DNA of 64,000 bases, taken from NCBI GenBank assembly GCA_947581825.1, contig CANPVP010000002.1, positions 104,747 to 168,746 of the forward strand, written 5' to 3'. This DNA is from an uncultured Clostridia bacterium. GTDB taxonomy: Bacteria; Bacillota; Clostridia; TANB77; CAG-508. The notes beneath the pieces were generated by a model. It was not told where the DNA came from and ran no database searches. It saw only the letters and a list, made by a program, of their open reading frames with translations. Below, piece after piece: positions 38,399 to 45,797 of this stretch (its first letter is position 1; the number at the start of each line of letters is the position of its first letter). Made by a program: the position numbers and the translations under genes.

Positions 38399-38430
38399 AC
38401 TCCCAGCAAGCAATGTTGGGAGTTTTTTTG
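38399..38430 (+). terminator. rho-independent terminator after rny (actccca-loop-tgggagt-TTTTTTT)
   Basis: 7-bp stem plus 7 T. Confidence 0.65.
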
Positions 38431-38663
38431 TCGATTTTTGGCATATGATTTTTCTTGACAAATTATTAAAATCAATATATAAAGTAATACATAAAATTTT
38501 TTATACTATTTTTTATTTCGAAATAAATTTAATTCTAAAAAATTAATTTCAAAAATAATTTCCAATAATTAATTAAACAAGAAAAGAAGAGTGGTGAGAT
38601 AATTATGCTAAAAAAGTAGAAGAACAAACTAAAGATAAATTCAAAAATGAAGCAAAAGATAAT

Positions 38664-39314
38664 ATGGTAAAAATAACCTTAATAATTATAATCTGGGCTT
38701 TAGCGGGTATACTTATTGTTCAAAATGTTTCATATACAAAAATTATATCTGGAATTAAAAATTCTCAGGGAAGTAATTTAATAGAAAATATTAATAGCAA
38801 AGATAAAAATGAAAAAACAAAAAATAATGAAAATACATTTATCCAAAACAATATTAATACTAAGAAAAATAATAATACTAAAAAGAACAATAATACAAAT
38901 AAACCAAAAGAAACAAAAAGATTTGTAGCAAAAGTTATTGGTACATTATCTATTCCAGATATTGAAATAAATGAAAAAAATATATATGAAGGAACAGAAT
39001 TAGATATTTTAAATATAGGAATAGGACATTTTACTAATACGAGTATTTGCAATGGAAATGTGGGCTTAGCTAGCCATAATTCTGGTGGAAAGGGTGATGA
39101 GTTTAAAAATTTAAAAAATATAAAAGTTGGAAGTGAAATATATTATAAAACAAAATACGATTCTAAAACTTATTCGGTCGAAATAGTTAAAGAGATTTCA
39201 GATGAGGATTGGTCATATTTGTCAGAAACTAAGGATAATAGGATTACTTTACTAACATGCATATCTGGAAAACCCAATAGCAGATTATGTGTTCAAGGAA
39301 AAGAAAAAACATAA
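38664..39314 (+). CDS. sortase (class B-like transpeptidase)
   Basis: N-terminal TM, His in GLASH, catalytic TLLTC and downstream Arg (SRL). 216 aa. Weak ribosome binding site. Confidence 0.7.
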   Translation: MVKITLIIIIWALAGILIVQNVSYTKIISGIKNSQGSNLIENINSKDKNEKTKNNENTFIQNNINTKKNNNTKKNNNTNKPKETKRFVAKVIGTLSIPDIEINEKNIYEGTELDILNIGIGHFTNTSICNGNVGLASHNSGGKGDEFKNLKNIKVGSEIYYKTKYDSKTYSVEIVKEISDEDWSYLSETKDNRITLLTCISGKPNSRLCVQGKEKT

Positions 39315-39388
39315 AGAACGAATGAAAAGGTATACTAACAATAATTGTTAGTAAGAAACAGTATAAAATACAAATAGGAGATGTAAAA

Positions 39389-41536
39389 ATGAAAGTTAGA
39401 TTTAAAAAAATACTAATAATGTTAATGATATTAGTTAATATCATTCAAATTAATATATGTTCTTTTGCAGAACTAGAAAAAAATCAGAAAATTAAATTAA
39501 AAAGTAATGGTATGCTAGATTGTTTATTGCAATTTTATAAAGAATCAATATCAGACTGGAGTTATAAAGTAGGGTACTATATATACTACTCAGATGAAGA
39601 TAATGGAAAGAAAGTTCCAGCAATTTGCGTAGAACCATCTAAGGATGGAGTGGGTGAACTAGGAAGCTATGATACAACTATAGATGTGTGCAATGATAAT
39701 GGTATATATACAATATTATATATTTTCAATAATAAGAAATATACTTCATGGAACTTGAAAAATGAAAAAGATTACTACTTAGCAGTTCAAACAGCAATGC
39801 ATTGCTATTCTGAGAAAATAAGCCCCAAAAAGAAATATCGAGTTGGAGATAGGGTTTTGGAAGGATATACACCAAAGACTTTAGAAGAAATAAAATCAAG
39901 AGGAAAAGCTGTTTTAAATACAGCAGAGAGTTTATATAATTCAGCAATAAAAAAAGAATATAAACAAGATTATTTATCCATTGATTTAAAAGAAAAAAGT
40001 GATTGGATAGAAGAAAAAATAAATGGAAAAGCATATTATTCTAAAAAATATGAAGTAGAATCAAACGTAAAATTAGATTATTATAAAATAGATGTTTCAG
40101 AATTATGGAATAATGCTAAAATATTTGATATGAAAAATAATAATATCAAAGAAAAATCAAAAGTTACAAATAATGAATTTAAAGTTTCTATTGAAAAGAG
40201 TGAGATTTCAACTCCTAAAACAATAAAAGGTAGAATAAAAATAGAATCTGCTACAGCAAAATTACCAACGGCAGTGTATGCTAATAGTAACAAAGGAAAC
40301 ACGCAAAATTATGTAATATTTACAGATAAAACTCAACAGGTAACAAAAGTAAAGACAACTGGTTTTACAACAGTAAACAATAAAATTAAAATACATAAAT
40401 TAGATTCTAATACAAAAGTTCCATTAGAAGGTGTAGACTTTAAAATATATAGTAAACAAAAAGATAGTAATGGTAAATATATTTTAAATGAAGACACATA
40501 TATATTAACAACTGACAAGAGTAATTTAAAAGGAGAAATCTCTCTCAATATAGAAAAAGCTGGAGATTATGTAGCTATAGAAAATACAGCTCCAACAGGA
40601 TATGTTTTATCAGATAAAACATATGAGTTTTCAGTTGATGTAGGCATTGCACCAAAAGATATAAAAATAAATATAGAAAATGATTTAATAAAAGGAAAAA
40701 TTGAAATACTAAAAAAATCAAAAGGATATAATCAGTTTTTAAATATAGAAGATGGAAAACCTTTAGAAGGTGCAAAGTATAAAATAGAGGATGCTAATGG
40801 AAATCTAATAGGAACATATACTACAAATTCAGAAGGCTTAATACTATCAAAAGATTTACCATATGGAGAATACAAAATATATGAGATAGAAAGTCCAAAA
40901 TTCTATAATCTTAATACTGAGCCTCAAACAATATTTATAAATGAAAATCAGAAAAAATACACAGTTATCTTTGAAAACGAATCATCTGAAGTTGAACTAA
41001 AAATTGAAAAATCAGGAACAAAAGAGACCGAATCAGGAAAAAAGGTAGAGTATGAATTTGATAATTTAGAAAACAAATCAAATGTTGCAGTTAATAATTT
41101 TACATGGAAAGATGTACTTCCAACTGATGCTGTTAGAATTAATGAGATTTCAACAGGAACATGGAAAGATGAAGTCGAATATTCAATTTGGTATAAAACA
41201 AATTTAAATAATAAATATGTCCTTTATAAAGATAAATTAAATTCAAAGAATAATTATAATTTTAATATGAATGAAATAAAATTATCAAAGAATGAATATA
41301 TTACAGAATATGAATTTAGATTTGGAACAGTTAATCCAGGATTCAAAGAAGAAATTAATCCTAAAATTTATTGTCAGGTATTAAAAGGTTTGAAAAGTGG
41401 GTATGAATTTACAAACAATACATATTTAACTGCAACATATTTTGACGAAAAAATTGAAGAACATGATAAATGGAAAACGTTTGTATATAATAAAGAAACT
41501 CCACAAAAGAATAAATTGCCTAAAACAGGAATATAA
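39389..41536 (+). CDS. secreted pilin/adhesin-like protein with two SpaA/Cna-B-type isopeptide domains, ending ...NKLPKTGI* (LPxTG without membrane anchor)
   Basis: Signal peptide. Prealbumin-fold repeats (VDFKIY...IENTAPTGYVLSDKTYEF; GAKYKIED...YGEYKIYEIESPKFYN). LPKTG is the penultimate motif, followed by one residue and a stop. No hydrophobic tail in any frame downstream. Confidence 0.7.
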   Translation: MKVRFKKILIMLMILVNIIQINICSFAELEKNQKIKLKSNGMLDCLLQFYKESISDWSYKVGYYIYYSDEDNGKKVPAICVEPSKDGVGELGSYDTTIDVCNDNGIYTILYIFNNKKYTSWNLKNEKDYYLAVQTAMHCYSEKISPKKKYRVGDRVLEGYTPKTLEEIKSRGKAVLNTAESLYNSAIKKEYKQDYLSIDLKEKSDWIEEKINGKAYYSKKYEVESNVKLDYYKIDVSELWNNAKIFDMKNNNIKEKSKVTNNEFKVSIEKSEISTPKTIKGRIKIESATAKLPTAVYANSNKGNTQNYVIFTDKTQQVTKVKTTGFTTVNNKIKIHKLDSNTKVPLEGVDFKIYSKQKDSNGKYILNEDTYILTTDKSNLKGEISLNIEKAGDYVAIENTAPTGYVLSDKTYEFSVDVGIAPKDIKINIENDLIKGKIEILKKSKGYNQFLNIEDGKPLEGAKYKIEDANGNLIGTYTTNSEGLILSKDLPYGEYKIYEIESPKFYNLNTEPQTIFINENQKKYTVIFENESSEVELKIEKSGTKETESGKKVEYEFDNLENKSNVAVNNFTWKDVLPTDAVRINEISTGTWKDEVEYSIWYKTNLNNKYVLYKDKLNSKNNYNFNMNEIKLSKNEYITEYEFRFGTVNPGFKEEINPKIYCQVLKGLKSGYEFTNNTYLTATYFDEKIEEHDKWKTFVYNKETPQKNKLPKTGI

Positions 41537-41586
41537 TAGTCATTAAAAAAAAGCAGATAAATTTTATAAAATCGTACTGAAAATAT

Positions 41587-41615
41587 TTGACTTTTTCATA
41601 CTTTTAATAGATAAT
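41587..41615 (+). promoter_or_regulatory. sigma-A promoter TTGACT-N17-GATAAT for the phosphorylase gene
   Basis: Spacing and boxes fit. About 60 nt upstream of the start. Confidence 0.45.
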
Positions 41616-41675: not shown

Positions 41676-44249
41676 ATGTACGTTTTTAATAAAATAACTG
41701 TTAATCCACAGTTACCTAAAAAAATTAATCGTCTTACAGAAATTTCTAATAATGTTTGGTGGTCTTGGAATTCTGATTTCTTAAAATTATTTAAAAAAAT
41801 TGATGTAGATTTATGGGAAACTACAGATAAGAATCCAGTTAAGTTTTTAAAATCTGTTTCACAAGATAAATTAGAAGAAGCAGCACAGAATGCAGAGTTT
41901 GTTAAAGAATATGAAAATATTGTAAAAAACTTTGATGACTATATGAATAGTAAAAATACTTGGTTTTCTAAAAATTATCCTAATAATAAAAATGATTTAA
42001 TTGCATATTTTTCAGCTGAATATGGTCTGGATGAGATTATTCCAATTTATTCTGGAGGACTAGGTATTTTATCAGGAGATCATTTAAAATCTGCTAGTGA
42101 TTTAGGTCTTCCTTTTGTAGCAGTAGGTTTATTATATAAACATGGATATTTTAACCAGAGAATAAATAGTAATGGAGAACAGTATACTGAATATAAAAAT
42201 ATAGATTTGGATAACTTACCAATTTTACCTGTTAAGGATAGAACTGGTGCAGATCTAATAATTCATATTAAATTACCAAAAAGAAGATTATTCCTAAAAG
42301 TTTGGCAGATAAATGTAGGAAGAATAAAACTATATTTATTAGATTCAGATATACCAGAAAATATAGATCCAGAATATAGAGAAACAACTTTAAAACTTTA
42401 TGGTGGAGATCAAGATATGAGAATAAGACAAGAGATTGTACTAGGAATGGCAGGTACAAGACTTTTAAAAGTTTTAGGCTTAAATGTTTCTTTATATCAT
42501 ATGAACGAAGGACATTCATCTTTCTTAATATTAGAAACAATTAAAGATATTATCGTTGATAAAAAAGTTTCTTTTGATATAGCTAGAGATATAGTATCAT
42601 CTAAAACTGTATTTACAACACATACTCCAGTTCCAGCAGGTAATGATATTTTCCCAATTGATTTAGTTGAAAAATATTTTAAAGATTATTGGCCAAAATT
42701 AGGAATTGAAAGAGATGAGTTTTTAAGACTTGGAATGAAATGTACAAAAGGCTTAGAAAGTGGATTTAATATGGGAATTCTTGCTTTAAAAGTTGCAGGC
42801 AAAAAGAATGGAGTAAGTAGATTACATGGAGCCGTTTCAAGAGAATTGTTTGGAGATGTGTGGCCAAATATAGCAGCAGATGAATCCCCAATAACATATG
42901 TAACAAATGGTATACACACATGTTCATGGTTGCCAACAGATATGAAAGAATTATATAATAAATATTTAAACCCATATTGGCAAGATAGTATCCATTTAGA
43001 TTCAACATGGGAGAAAATAGACAATATTCCTGATCAAGAATTATGGGAAGAACATAATAAGAGAAAACAAAAACTTATGGCTTTAGTAAAAGATAATGTG
43101 ACAACAAGATTGAGAAATTCAGGAGTAGGATATGATGAAATTAATGAAATAACTTCTAAATTAAACCCAAATGCATTAACAATAGGATTTGCTAGAAGAT
43201 TTGCAACATACAAAAGAGCAACTCTTATATTTAGGGATTTAGAAAGAATAATGCAAATATTAAATAATCAGGAGAGACCTGTTCAATTGATTTTTGCAGG
43301 AAAAGCACATCCAGCCGATGTTGAAGGTCAAAATCTAATAAAATACATTAATGAAATATCAAATATGCCACAATTTAAAGGTAAAATATTTATATTAGAA
43401 AATTACAATATAGCAATAGCTAGATACCTTGTAAGTGGAGTTGATGTATGGTTAAATACGCCAAGAAGACCAATGGAAGCTTCAGGAACAAGTGGACAAA
43501 AAGCATCTGTAAATGGTGTTATAAACTTTAGTATACTAGATGGATGGTGGGCAGAAGGTTATAATCAAGAAAATGGTTGGACTATAGGAACTAATGCTGA
43601 GTATGATTCTTATGAATTACAAGATATTGCAGATAGTGAAAGTATTTATACAACATTAGAACACAAAATAGTACCAGATTATTATGAGAGAGACAAAAAA
43701 GGTTTGCCAATAAAATGGATTAAAAGAATGAAAAATTCTATTAAATCTACAGGAGGAAGATTTAGTACTGCTAGAATGGTTGTAGATTATGTTAGAGACT
43801 TATATATGCCACTATGTGAATTAAGTAAAAAATACTATTCAGATTTAGAAAATGTCATGGAATTTAATCATTGGAAAAAAGAATTAGGACTTTCATGGGA
43901 TAAAATAAAAATTGAACAAGGTGACAATTTAGAAAATATAACTTTAGATGCAGGAAATAAAATAGGAGTTTCTTGCGAAATTGAATTGCCAAATATAGAT
44001 GTAAAAAATATAGAAGCACAAGTTTATTATGGAAAAATATTAGATAATGGTGTAGTAAGACTAGAAAAAACAATTCCAATGGAATTAGATGTTAATGCCA
44101 GTGATAAAGAAAATAGGAAATATAAATATAAGGCAGATGTTGAATTAACAACAGGTGGAAATTACGGATATACATTTAGAGTAATGCCAAAACATGATAT
44201 GCTACTAGAATCATCTAACTTGAATCTAATAAAATGGATAACACAATAG
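41676..44249 (+). CDS. glgP: alpha-glucan (glycogen/maltodextrin) phosphorylase, GT35, with C-terminal extension
   Basis: PLP-lysine region EASGTSGQKASVNGVINFSILDGWW. 857 aa. Confidence 0.85.
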   Translation: MYVFNKITVNPQLPKKINRLTEISNNVWWSWNSDFLKLFKKIDVDLWETTDKNPVKFLKSVSQDKLEEAAQNAEFVKEYENIVKNFDDYMNSKNTWFSKNYPNNKNDLIAYFSAEYGLDEIIPIYSGGLGILSGDHLKSASDLGLPFVAVGLLYKHGYFNQRINSNGEQYTEYKNIDLDNLPILPVKDRTGADLIIHIKLPKRRLFLKVWQINVGRIKLYLLDSDIPENIDPEYRETTLKLYGGDQDMRIRQEIVLGMAGTRLLKVLGLNVSLYHMNEGHSSFLILETIKDIIVDKKVSFDIARDIVSSKTVFTTHTPVPAGNDIFPIDLVEKYFKDYWPKLGIERDEFLRLGMKCTKGLESGFNMGILALKVAGKKNGVSRLHGAVSRELFGDVWPNIAADESPITYVTNGIHTCSWLPTDMKELYNKYLNPYWQDSIHLDSTWEKIDNIPDQELWEEHNKRKQKLMALVKDNVTTRLRNSGVGYDEINEITSKLNPNALTIGFARRFATYKRATLIFRDLERIMQILNNQERPVQLIFAGKAHPADVEGQNLIKYINEISNMPQFKGKIFILENYNIAIARYLVSGVDVWLNTPRRPMEASGTSGQKASVNGVINFSILDGWWAEGYNQENGWTIGTNAEYDSYELQDIADSESIYTTLEHKIVPDYYERDKKGLPIKWIKRMKNSIKSTGGRFSTARMVVDYVRDLYMPLCELSKKYYSDLENVMEFNHWKKELGLSWDKIKIEQGDNLENITLDAGNKIGVSCEIELPNIDVKNIEAQVYYGKILDNGVVRLEKTIPMELDVNASDKENRKYKYKADVELTTGGNYGYTFRVMPKHDMLLESSNLNLIKWITQ

Positions 44250-44534: not shown

Positions 44535-45797
44535 ATGGCTAAAGAAGAAAATGTAAAAGAAGAAAAGGTAGAAGAAGTGAAAGTAGAGAAGGGTAATAAT
44601 AAAGCTTTGATAATAGTAGGGTTTCTGATTTTGATTTTAGCTATCATTATAGTTAGTACAATCCTAATATGTGGTAATAACAAGGATATAGAACAGAAAA
44701 ATAATAAAGAAGAAAATGAAATCAAGCAATCACAAGAAAAAGCTTTAATAGAATTTGAAGAAAATTTTACTATTGGAAAAGAAATGTCATATAATGAGTT
44801 AATTTCTAAATTAGTAAATACTAATCAAATTAAAGAAAACACGAAAATAACTCTTAAAGTTAATGATAAAGAAATAACAGAAGATGAAAAATATGTATTC
44901 AATGAAATAGGCAAATATAAAGTTGATGTTAAATTAGAATATAAAAAAGAAGAATCAGTAATCATAAATGAGAAAAGTTCTGAGATTAATATAATGGCAG
45001 ATAGAGAAAAACCCGTTATATCTGGAATTTCAGATAAAACAATTACTGTTGGAGATAAAATTGATTTAAAGGCTGGAATTACAGCAGAAGATAGTGTGGA
45101 CGGAAAACTAGATGTAACCATTGAAGGCAAAGTTGATAATAAAAAAGCAGGTAAGTATGATATAAAAGTAATTGCAACTGATAAAAGTGGCAATAAGCAA
45201 GAAGAAACTTTTACTGTTACAGTAAAAGAAAAGAAAAAAAATGAAACTGCCAATAAAACAACAAATACGACAGCAACAAACAAAACAACAAATACCAACA
45301 AAACTAATACAAACAAAAATACAACAACTAAAACAACGAAAAAGAAAGAACAAACTAAAAAAACATTTACAACATCAGAATTAATTGCAGCAGGGAAAAG
45401 TGCGAAAAGTAGTTATAGAACACAGATAAATGCAGTTTTCAGTTATACTAATAAATACAGAGAAAAAGCTGGAGTTGAAAAATTAAAATTAGATGAAACC
45501 TTATCTACAGCAGCTTGCATGAGAGCTGTAGAAATGGCATACTCAGGTAATTTTTCACATACAAGACCAGATGGGAAAGGTAACTGTTTTACTGTTTTAA
45601 GTGAAGTAGGTGCAAATTATGGCTATGTAGGTGAAAACATAGCAATGGGACAGGCAAGTGCTAAAGCTGCAACAGAATGGTGGAGAAATTCATCAGGACA
45701 TTATCAAAATATGATTTCATCAAATTTTAAAAAGATTGGAGTAGGAGCTTTTAAATATAATGGAAAATACTATTGGGTTCAAATATTTACAGATTAA
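44535..45797 (+). CDS. membrane-anchored CAP/SCP (YkwD-like) domain protein with Ig-like (DUF5011-type) domain and Thr/Asn-rich linker
   Basis: N-terminal TM. Ig-like REKPVISGISDKTITVGDKIDL...KYDIKVIATDKSGN. Linker NKTTNTTATNKTTNTNKTNTNK. C-terminal CAP motifs (HTRPDGKG, GENIAMG, GHYQNMIS). Confidence 0.7.
   Translation: MAKEENVKEEKVEEVKVEKGNNKALIIVGFLILILAIIIVSTILICGNNKDIEQKNNKEENEIKQSQEKALIEFEENFTIGKEMSYNELISKLVNTNQIKENTKITLKVNDKEITEDEKYVFNEIGKYKVDVKLEYKKEESVIINEKSSEINIMADREKPVISGISDKTITVGDKIDLKAGITAEDSVDGKLDVTIEGKVDNKKAGKYDIKVIATDKSGNKQEETFTVTVKEKKKNETANKTTNTTATNKTTNTNKTNTNKNTTTKTTKKKEQTKKTFTTSELIAAGKSAKSSYRTQINAVFSYTNKYREKAGVEKLKLDETLSTAACMRAVEMAYSGNFSHTRPDGKGNCFTVLSEVGANYGYVGENIAMGQASAKAATEWWRNSSGHYQNMISSNFKKIGVGAFKYNGKYYWVQIFTD

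Follow-up and report, generated by a model that had tools for sequence, protein, structure and literature searches.

How can a sortase fix a protein to the cell surface when that protein stops one residue after the sortase motif? The question is raised by two adjacent genes, one for a sortase and one for an adhesin, in a stretch of 64,000 nucleotides (hereafter the window) from an uncultured Clostridia lineage with 27% GC (contig CANPVP010000002.1, positions 104,747 to 168,746). The tripartite sorting signal, LPXTG followed by a hydrophobic segment and a charged tail, is treated as universal, and it underlies both predictors and the anchor models in Pfam and NCBIfam. The adhesin in the window ends in LPKTG, one isoleucine and a stop. 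We find this ending to be conserved across a large family linked to adjacent sortase genes, and the comparative sequence data suggest, with a probability that we put at roughly 60%, that a minimal LPxTG-X signal is processed by the dedicated sortase, which would anchor the adhesin even though its substrate is not retained in the membrane. The parts of the locus on which the argument turns are these:

38664-39314, plus strand: sortase gene, 216 aa (Pfam Sortase, 5.4e-18).
39389-41536, plus strand: adhesin gene, 715 aa, with a signal peptide, a class II thioester domain, two SpaA/CnaB domains, a CnaA-like domain, LPKTG-I and the stop.
LPKTG at 41516-41530, Ile715 at 41531-41533, TAA at 41534-41536 and an in-frame TAG at 41537-41539, plus strand: predicted minimal sorting signal, from sequence and family conservation.

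The adhesin ends in ...ETPQKNKLPKTGI, with LPKTG as residues 710-714, Ile715 as the sole residue beyond the motif and two consecutive in-frame stops (TAA, TAG) after it. From 41515 to the start of the downstream glgP-like gene (41676) no hydrophobic stretch is encoded in any of the three frames, all of which are full of stops. An earlier reading of this DNA made without database searches (the sequence-only reading) had described an ...NKLPKTGI-stop ending with no transmembrane (TM) tail in any downstream frame, and both descriptions are borne out. Within the protein, past residue 30, the top Kyte-Doolittle mean over 19 residues is merely 0.46. The hydrophobic segment and the positively charged tail of the canonical signal are thus both absent, and Pfam and NCBIfam scans of the adhesin gave no match to the LPXTG-anchor models PF00746 and TIGR01167, nor to any other NCBIfam model. 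Given the composition of the window, L-P-x-T-G would fall at a fixed position by chance with a probability of ~2e-6, and among the long open reading frames (ORFs) of the window the adhesin alone has LPxTG at its end. The same protein, without a single difference, occurs on at least 16 contigs that were assembled independently, which excludes a sequencing error. Read-through, a frameshift and an alternative genetic code were considered as means of restoring a TM tail and rejected: no frame encodes one, and TAA and TAG both serve as stops.

Is the short tail the stump of a longer one? The sequence-only reading had proposed, as one option, that a deletion into the glgP promoter region had truncated the sorting signal and left a decaying pilus or adhesin locus; an assembly or sequencing artefact would have the same appearance. 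The stop directly after the motif, 140 nt before glgP, and the A8 homopolymer that follows it are in line with such an explanation. However, 5.8 billion proteins were searched with 114 matches, and of the 31 nearest homologues (28-85% identity) 30 end in LP[KRLI]TG plus exactly one residue before the stop; ordinary tails of LPXTG, hydrophobic segment and K/R residues belong to the distant matches that share the SpaA repeats alone (Listeria, Ruminococcus and others). L710, P711, T713 and G714 are invariant in a 19-sequence alignment in which the preceding linker is variable. Over 31 distinct DNA tails the motif is written with four codons each for Leu, Gly and Thr and two for Pro, and the stop is TAA in 15 and TAG in 16; this synonymous variation of the motif codons points to purifying selection at the peptide level. 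A profile of the last 180 residues of the adhesin (C-terminal domain and tail), run against 1.84 billion cluster representatives, gave 2456 matches at E<=1e-3 and 460 at E<=1e-30. LPxTG plus zero or one residue ends 98 of the 147 best matches (zero in merely 2 of those), and another 8 of the 147 have two to six residues after LPxTG, the rest being mostly giant multirepeat proteins that match the profile in part. The +1 spacing holds in 96 of the 106 short tails.

The short ending is shared by orthologues with as little as 53% identity, by distant homologues whose genomic surroundings are unrelated, and by the sole genome match, a 96%-identical uncultured Clostridia metagenome-assembled genome (MAG) from rabbit (orthologue alignment A3). 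No TM segment is encoded in any frame downstream of the stop, either in the window or in 7 other loci, and a gene-calling artefact in the short ends of the homologues is excluded by checks on the DNA. The adhesin ORF is otherwise intact, with a high-confidence predicted fold, and in a second lineage, too, the cassette is found upstream of glgP. Taken with the synonymous changes in the motif codons, these observations refute the truncation reading and leave truncation or artefact extremely improbable. The sequence-only reading had itself named, as evidence that would count against truncation, orthologues that likewise end at LPxTG-X in conserved synteny; the sequence half of that evidence is what the homologues present.

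The single residue after the motif has a plausible chemical basis. For sortase A (SrtA) of Staphylococcus aureus the Gly of LPXTG "cannot be a free carboxylate" (PMC5714338), and this need for Gly in a peptide bond would account for +1 tails being common and +0 tails nearly absent. The identity of that residue is biased among the cluster representatives (F 31, Y 18, K 14, M 11, C 5, E 5), and in the human-gut copies on integrative and conjugative elements (ICEs) it is mostly Cys; the bias may reflect an S2' preference of the sortase or AT-rich codon usage.

A conserved motif could nonetheless end a protein that is merely secreted, with LPxTG-X a relic or a motif foreign to sortases and the neighboring sortase serving other substrates. 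Classical sortase substrates that lack the hydrophobic segment and charged tail are released, and release had been a second option of the sequence-only reading. The association between the two genes bears on this. A metagenome scan with the sortase family alignment recovered 80 loci, 57 of them informative in having at least 4.5 kb of downstream sequence. A same-strand adhesin ending in LPxTG plus at most three residues, mostly LPRTGC or LPRTGY, accompanies the sortase in 46 of the 57; four carry a canonical signal (LPRTGESDLG, a hydrophobic stretch and RKK), five end in LP[KR]TR and two are unclassified. The sortase also lies directly upstream of the adhesin in all chromosomal homologues examined (L008 and the P0017 contig, the latter also recovered as L089), and the P0017/L089 pair again sits upstream of glgP and asnB. 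The window holds no second LPxTG protein. Four residues invariant across 28-85% identity while their codons change synonymously, a fixed +1 spacing and so constant a sortase neighbor fit poorly with simple release, and a relic would have decayed, as the LPxTR endings may illustrate. We therefore regard secretion without sortase action as improbable.

The few canonical tails are informative about the history of the short one. In a neighbor-joining analysis of catalytic domains, the sortases that partner canonical-tail adhesins form a single shallow clade, 80% identical to the partners of short-tail adhesins, and the lineages around this clade, every deep branch included, are all short-tailed. 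The canonical-tail adhesin of L016 has the same C-terminal domain as the adhesin in the window and aligns with it through LPRTG at 37% identity over residues 306-714. The nesting of the canonical clade within short-tail lineages suggests that one enzyme type serves both tails and that the short tail is old.

The clade ending in LP[KR]TR, with Arg in place of Gly and zero to five residues after it, comprises the adhesins of L025 (9132-13244), L063-L065 (11568-13241) and L067 (7227-10214), together with the cluster representatives P0278, P0285, P0293 and P0298. L067 has a longer, unrelated tail after the motif, and in L063-65 the adhesin is split into ORFs of 832 and 557 aa. The sortases of these loci group with that of L051, whose adhesin has a normal LPRTGC. 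These copies are either decaying or have changed their P1' specificity.

Most relatives of the pair are found in conjugative elements, where their neighbors include VirB4/TraG-like ATPases, a TraC-like protein, an M23 hydrolase and the coupling protein of a type IV secretion system (T4SS); homologues lie within T4SS, ICE or plasmid gene sets in L005-7 and L010-12. A plasmid search with the adhesin gave no match covering the C-terminal domain, and one with an ICE-type sortase gave best matches of at most 35% identity. A class II thioester-domain (TED) adhesin acts in pLS20 mating in liquid culture (PMC8092201), and the presence of relatives in conjugative elements fits this published role. The copy in the window is chromosomal, between rny and glgP, and no conjugation or T4SS genes lie near it, so by its location it does not qualify as part of a mating module.

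What kind of enzyme could act on such a tail? The sortase in the window has the following predicted parts:

38664-39314, plus strand: the sortase as a whole, with an N-terminal TM anchor (residues 4-20), an Asn/Lys-rich low-complexity linker (about 25-88) and the catalytic domain (89-216).
39075-39077, plus strand: codon of His138 (LASHN), predicted catalytic, invariant in alignment A4 and aligned with the GHN His of 2kw8.
39258-39260, plus strand: codon of Cys199 (TLLTC), predicted catalytic, invariant in A4 and aligned with LITC of 2kw8.
39282-39284, plus strand: codon of Arg207 (SRLCVQ), predicted catalytic, invariant in A4.

Alignment A4 comprises 14 diverse members of this well-conserved family, which has the motifs GN[VI]GLASHN and RLCVQ. 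The Pfam match and these invariant residues uphold the 216-aa upstream sortase, with its TLLTC Cys, His and Arg, of the sequence-only reading. Membership in the superfamily is clear from PF04203 (65.4 bits against a cut-off of 26.6) and TIGR01076 (70.3 bits against 39.35). The NCBIfam class models, among which no class A model was listed, all stay below threshold: class C (NF033745) 81.8 bits against 160, class E 66.6/160, class D 50.7/165 and SrtD 65/140. The sortase is accordingly assigned to no class. The nearest solved relatives by sequence are class A and D enzymes, including SrtA of Bacillus anthracis and of S. aureus. A C-terminal TM segment is absent from the sortase, which stops 9 residues past R207.

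These features bear on another explanation, in which the sortase joins the LPxTG-X adhesin to a protein acceptor, a lysine or N-terminus of another surface protein in the manner of a pilus tip, or holds it as a persistent acyl-enzyme; in the latter version the long Asn/Lys-rich linker of the sortase may itself act as stalk and anchor. The exported substrate would be soluble, so that lipid II at the membrane face is not obviously the favored acceptor; the low-complexity linker between the TM segment and the catalytic domain is unusually long; the best NCBIfam match, though far below its cut-off, is to the pilus-polymerizing class C; and in conjugative elements one to three genes for small TM or secreted proteins, those of ICE-type loci without a Pfam match, lie between sortase and adhesin. 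In the window, however, there is no gene between the two and no pilin-like neighbor, the adhesin has no pilin motif of the YPKN type, and the sortase, whose nearest solved relatives are in classes A and D, is without the C-terminal TM segment that class C enzymes typically have. We consider transfer to a protein acceptor, or retention on the enzyme, unlikely, and processing of the minimal signal with anchoring of the adhesin remains the reading that we prefer.

The 5' end of the sortase gene shows some irregularities. The in-frame codons just upstream of the ATG at 38664 read ...YAKKVEEQTKDKFKNEAKDN (window 38595-38666), which resembles the N-terminal cytoplasmic extension of the orthologues P0137 and P0141. 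A TGA at 38595-97 interrupts the frame, with no in-frame start before 38664, and an out-of-frame ATG at 38605 has a GGTGAG ribosome-binding site on its 5' side and an A6 run on its 3' side. There may be a 1-nt frameshift near the start of the gene, and the true start and the expression level are uncertain. In L089 (7899-8661, from the P0017 genome), the sortase is present as ORFs of 180 and 81 aa with the break right after the catalytic-His motif (LASHNAGR / GKGDEF), reflecting either a MAG assembly error or a pseudogene; the adhesin of this locus is intact (514 aa), has no SpaA domains and ends in LPKTGF.

The adhesin is the other half of the problem, and its predicted architecture is as follows:

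39389-39469, plus strand: Sec signal peptide, residues 1-27, predicted cleavage after SFA (SFA27); A27, S25 and Q20 are invariant among orthologues.
39476-40363, plus strand: class II thioester domain, about residues 30-325, from Foldseek matches.
40379-40987, plus strand: two SpaA/CnaB-type stalk domains, about residues 331-432 and 434-533, from Pfam PF17802 and an all-beta model.
40994-41488, plus strand: family-specific C-terminal beta-sandwich, CnaA-like, about residues 536-700, from alignments A1 and A2 and the AlphaFold2 (AF2) model.

The AF2 model (predicted local distance difference test score, pLDDT, 89.7; residues 2-20 form a low-pLDDT helix) finds its best fold match in the Protein Data Bank with BaTIE of B. 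anthracis (6FWV, Foldseek E=1.3e-29) and also matches the TED of EfmTIE86 of Enterococcus faecium (6FWY, TMt 0.74-0.76). By these matches the predicted fold is that of class II, the slipknot type of TED with a beta-sandwich insert. The published motifs for class II TEDs place the Cys in [YFL]C-hydrophobic-hydrophilic and the Gln in hydrophobic-Q-hydrophilic-hydrophobic-hydrophobic (Miller et al., PMC6194298). The contexts of Cys80 (AICVE; nt 39626-39628) and Gln306 (TQNYV; nt 40304-40306) fit these, and the two residues form a candidate thioester pair: Gln306 is invariant over the 19 sequences, and Cys80 among the orthologues, which read FCVE or LCVE. The Ile before Cys80 in the window (ICVE) is a slight departure from [YFL]. 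The canonical-tail relative L016 matches the Pfam TED model above its cut-off. On the strength of the model, the protein is best described as a class II thioester-domain (TIE) adhesin with a candidate thioester. The label of pilin in the sequence-only reading does not hold, given this fold; a polymerizing pilin was rejected for want of a YPK motif. The two SpaA-type domains noted in that reading are confirmed by two stretches of PF17802 (100.3 bits, E=6.8e-29), in which the nearly invariant K337 and N431 may form an isopeptide pair. The idea of a lipoprotein anchor at Cys24 was rejected, as this Cys is not conserved and a lipobox is absent. Adhesin length across the family runs from 514 to more than 2200 aa through the number of SpaA repeats (0 to at least 6), which sit between the conserved thioester head and the conserved C-terminal domain, a variation in stalk length like that of "periscope proteins". 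In L005 (5781-8382) and L010 (8302-11356) the called adhesin gene begins within the thioester domain, the N-terminal region being spread over small, overlapping ORFs, which may reflect frameshifts or phase variation; other conjugative-element loci, such as L017, L020 and L021, have a single intact adhesin ORF.

The C-terminal domain (165 residues, AF2 pLDDT 94) directly precedes the short tail. It matched no Pfam or NCBIfam model, and a fold search with the isolated domain gave weak matches alone (CppA, Cna, BcpA; CnaA-, pilin- and cohesin-like) and nothing to suggest a docking or wall-binding domain of known type. The invariant K541, E636 and N676 are candidates, by sequence, for an isopeptide triad. 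It is possible, though doubtful, that the CnaA-like domain and LPxTG-X make up a membrane-independent sorting module, the sortase docking on the folded domain and acting on a released, soluble substrate. If so, attachment need not take place at the membrane face: the mature wall or another protein could be the target, and it might even occur in trans while mating pairs form. This would be a second, unrecognized route of sortase-mediated surface display in Firmicutes, with natural sortases for soluble substrates. One family member, P0034 (603 aa), ends in ...FTNSPKEPELPKTGF right after its SpaA domain, without the CnaA-like domain; the short tail can thus occur without that domain, and the case for docking is the weaker for it.

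These parts can be assembled into a mechanism. The locus would be a two-gene cassette of a membrane-anchored sortase and its dedicated, Sec-secreted TIE adhesin substrate. Once the adhesin has been exported and its signal peptide cut off, Cys199 of the sortase would attack the bond between Thr713 and Gly714 and free a Gly-Ile dipeptide, and the carboxyl of Thr713 would be passed to an amine acceptor, most likely a peptidoglycan precursor. The N-terminal thioester domain would then be displayed on the SpaA/CnaA stalk, able to bind its target covalently. The residue after Gly would serve to keep that Gly in a peptide bond, and the hydrophobic segment and charged tail would be dispensable in this family. 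Of the options in the sequence-only reading, its third, a noncanonical use of the substrate by the sortase without membrane retention, is the one that the comparative data favor.

Several points weigh against such a mechanism. Schneewind et al. in 1992-93 reportedly found that deletion of the hydrophobic domain or of the charged tail of protein A led to its secretion, so that capture here would need some substitute; it may be that the C-terminal domain docks on the sortase, that there is coupling to the translocon, or that an uncleaved signal peptide tethers the protein transiently. Since the sortase falls far below every NCBIfam class cut-off, class membership offers no guide to its specificity. 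In the window the sortase gene has a weak start codon and a weak ribosome-binding site, the orthologous sortase in L089 is split by a frameshift, and the bias in the last residue (F, Y, K, M) may in part be AT-rich composition. In favor of mere secretion, TIEpLS20, a related class II TED adhesin, works without a sortase or LPXTG (PMC8092201).

The surroundings of the cassette define it as a separate unit, with these boundaries:

38399-38423, plus strand: intrinsic-terminator-like hairpin and T-run at the end of the upstream rny gene (10-bp stem with 5 GC pairs, then TTTTTTT).
39315-39388, plus strand: intergenic spacer of 74 nt, with a GGAG ribosome-binding site ~8 nt 5' of the adhesin ATG.
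41587-41615, plus strand: promoter-like site TTGACT-17-GATAAT before the glgP-like gene (41676-44249), the downstream boundary, outside the system.

The identities of rny and the glgP-like gene come from Pfam. The hairpin sets the sortase-adhesin unit apart from rny, and since no terminator-like site was found in the 74-nt spacer, the two genes are likely cotranscribed. Just past glgP, at 44535-45797, a gene encodes a secreted protein that combines Ig-like domains with CAP domains (cysteine-rich secretory protein family); a CAP-domain gene is also found between sortase and adhesin in L078 (6843-7625), and the two may be functionally linked to the cassette.

TIE adhesins are already known, as are mobile elements that carry sortase-adhesin pairs; what appears to be new is a conserved natural signal reduced to LPxTG-X. 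No description of natural LPxTG-X-stop tails was found in the searchable literature, where "LPRTG" occurs in sortagging papers alone. A large conserved family that keeps a dedicated sortase yet drops two of the three parts of the signal would imply that membrane retention is not an absolute requirement for sorting, and surface proteins of this kind are overlooked by current predictors. The sortases of the family may have evolved to capture soluble LPxTG-X substrates, which would make them attractive for protein ligation. Since the relatives are mostly found on conjugative elements of gut Clostridia and have thioester domains of a covalent-binding type, the module may play a part in forming mating pairs and in spreading genes within the gut; the chromosomal copy may instead serve host or cell-cell adhesion.

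Among known systems, the adhesin most resembles BaTIE, SaTIE and EfmTIE86 (6FWV, 6FWY; PMC6194298), with which it shares the signal peptide, the class II TED Cys and Gln, a CnaB/SpaA stalk and a C-terminal LPxTG. However, BaTIE has LPATG with a transmembrane-spanning domain and depends on the housekeeping sortase A, whereas the adhesin in the window has one residue after LPKTG and adds before it a CnaA-like domain that has no Pfam model; sequence identity between the two types is merely about 15%. TIEpLS20 (gene 34 of pLS20, Bacillus subtilis; Gago-Cordoba et al. 2021, PMC8092201) is likewise a class II TED adhesin that lacks a canonical sorting signal, and like most homologues of the adhesin in the window it is associated with a conjugative element. 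It differs in having no LPXTG, with no sortase gene on pLS20 and conjugation independent of sortase, as against the invariant LPxTG and adjacent sortase of the window family, and the copy in the window is chromosomal with no T4SS genes nearby. The pairing of a sortase gene with a CnaB-adhesin gene on mobile elements is the same as in the cargo of clostridial conjugative elements such as 023_CTn2 of Clostridioides difficile (PMC6814731). The same pairing is seen in L013-L016, with the same sortase family (80% catalytic-domain identity to the short-tail partners) and the same adhesin C-terminal domain; these retain LPRTG with a hydrophobic stretch and an RKK tail behind it, both of which are absent from the window family. 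With the canonical SrtA system (S. aureus and protein A; B. anthracis 2kw8) the locus has in common LPXTG, the sortase fold, the His-Cys-Arg residues and an N-terminal membrane anchor, but its signal lacks two of the three parts, and its sortase is dedicated and adjacent rather than housekeeping. A parallel for the tail itself comes from sortagging substrates (LPETG-X, LPETGG), which demonstrate that a soluble LPXTG with at least one further residue suffices for SrtA in vitro, where the Gly must not end in a free carboxylate (PMC5714338). Those substrates are artificial and are offered to a soluble, truncated enzyme at high concentration, whereas the tail in the window is natural and conserved and is paired with a membrane-anchored enzyme.

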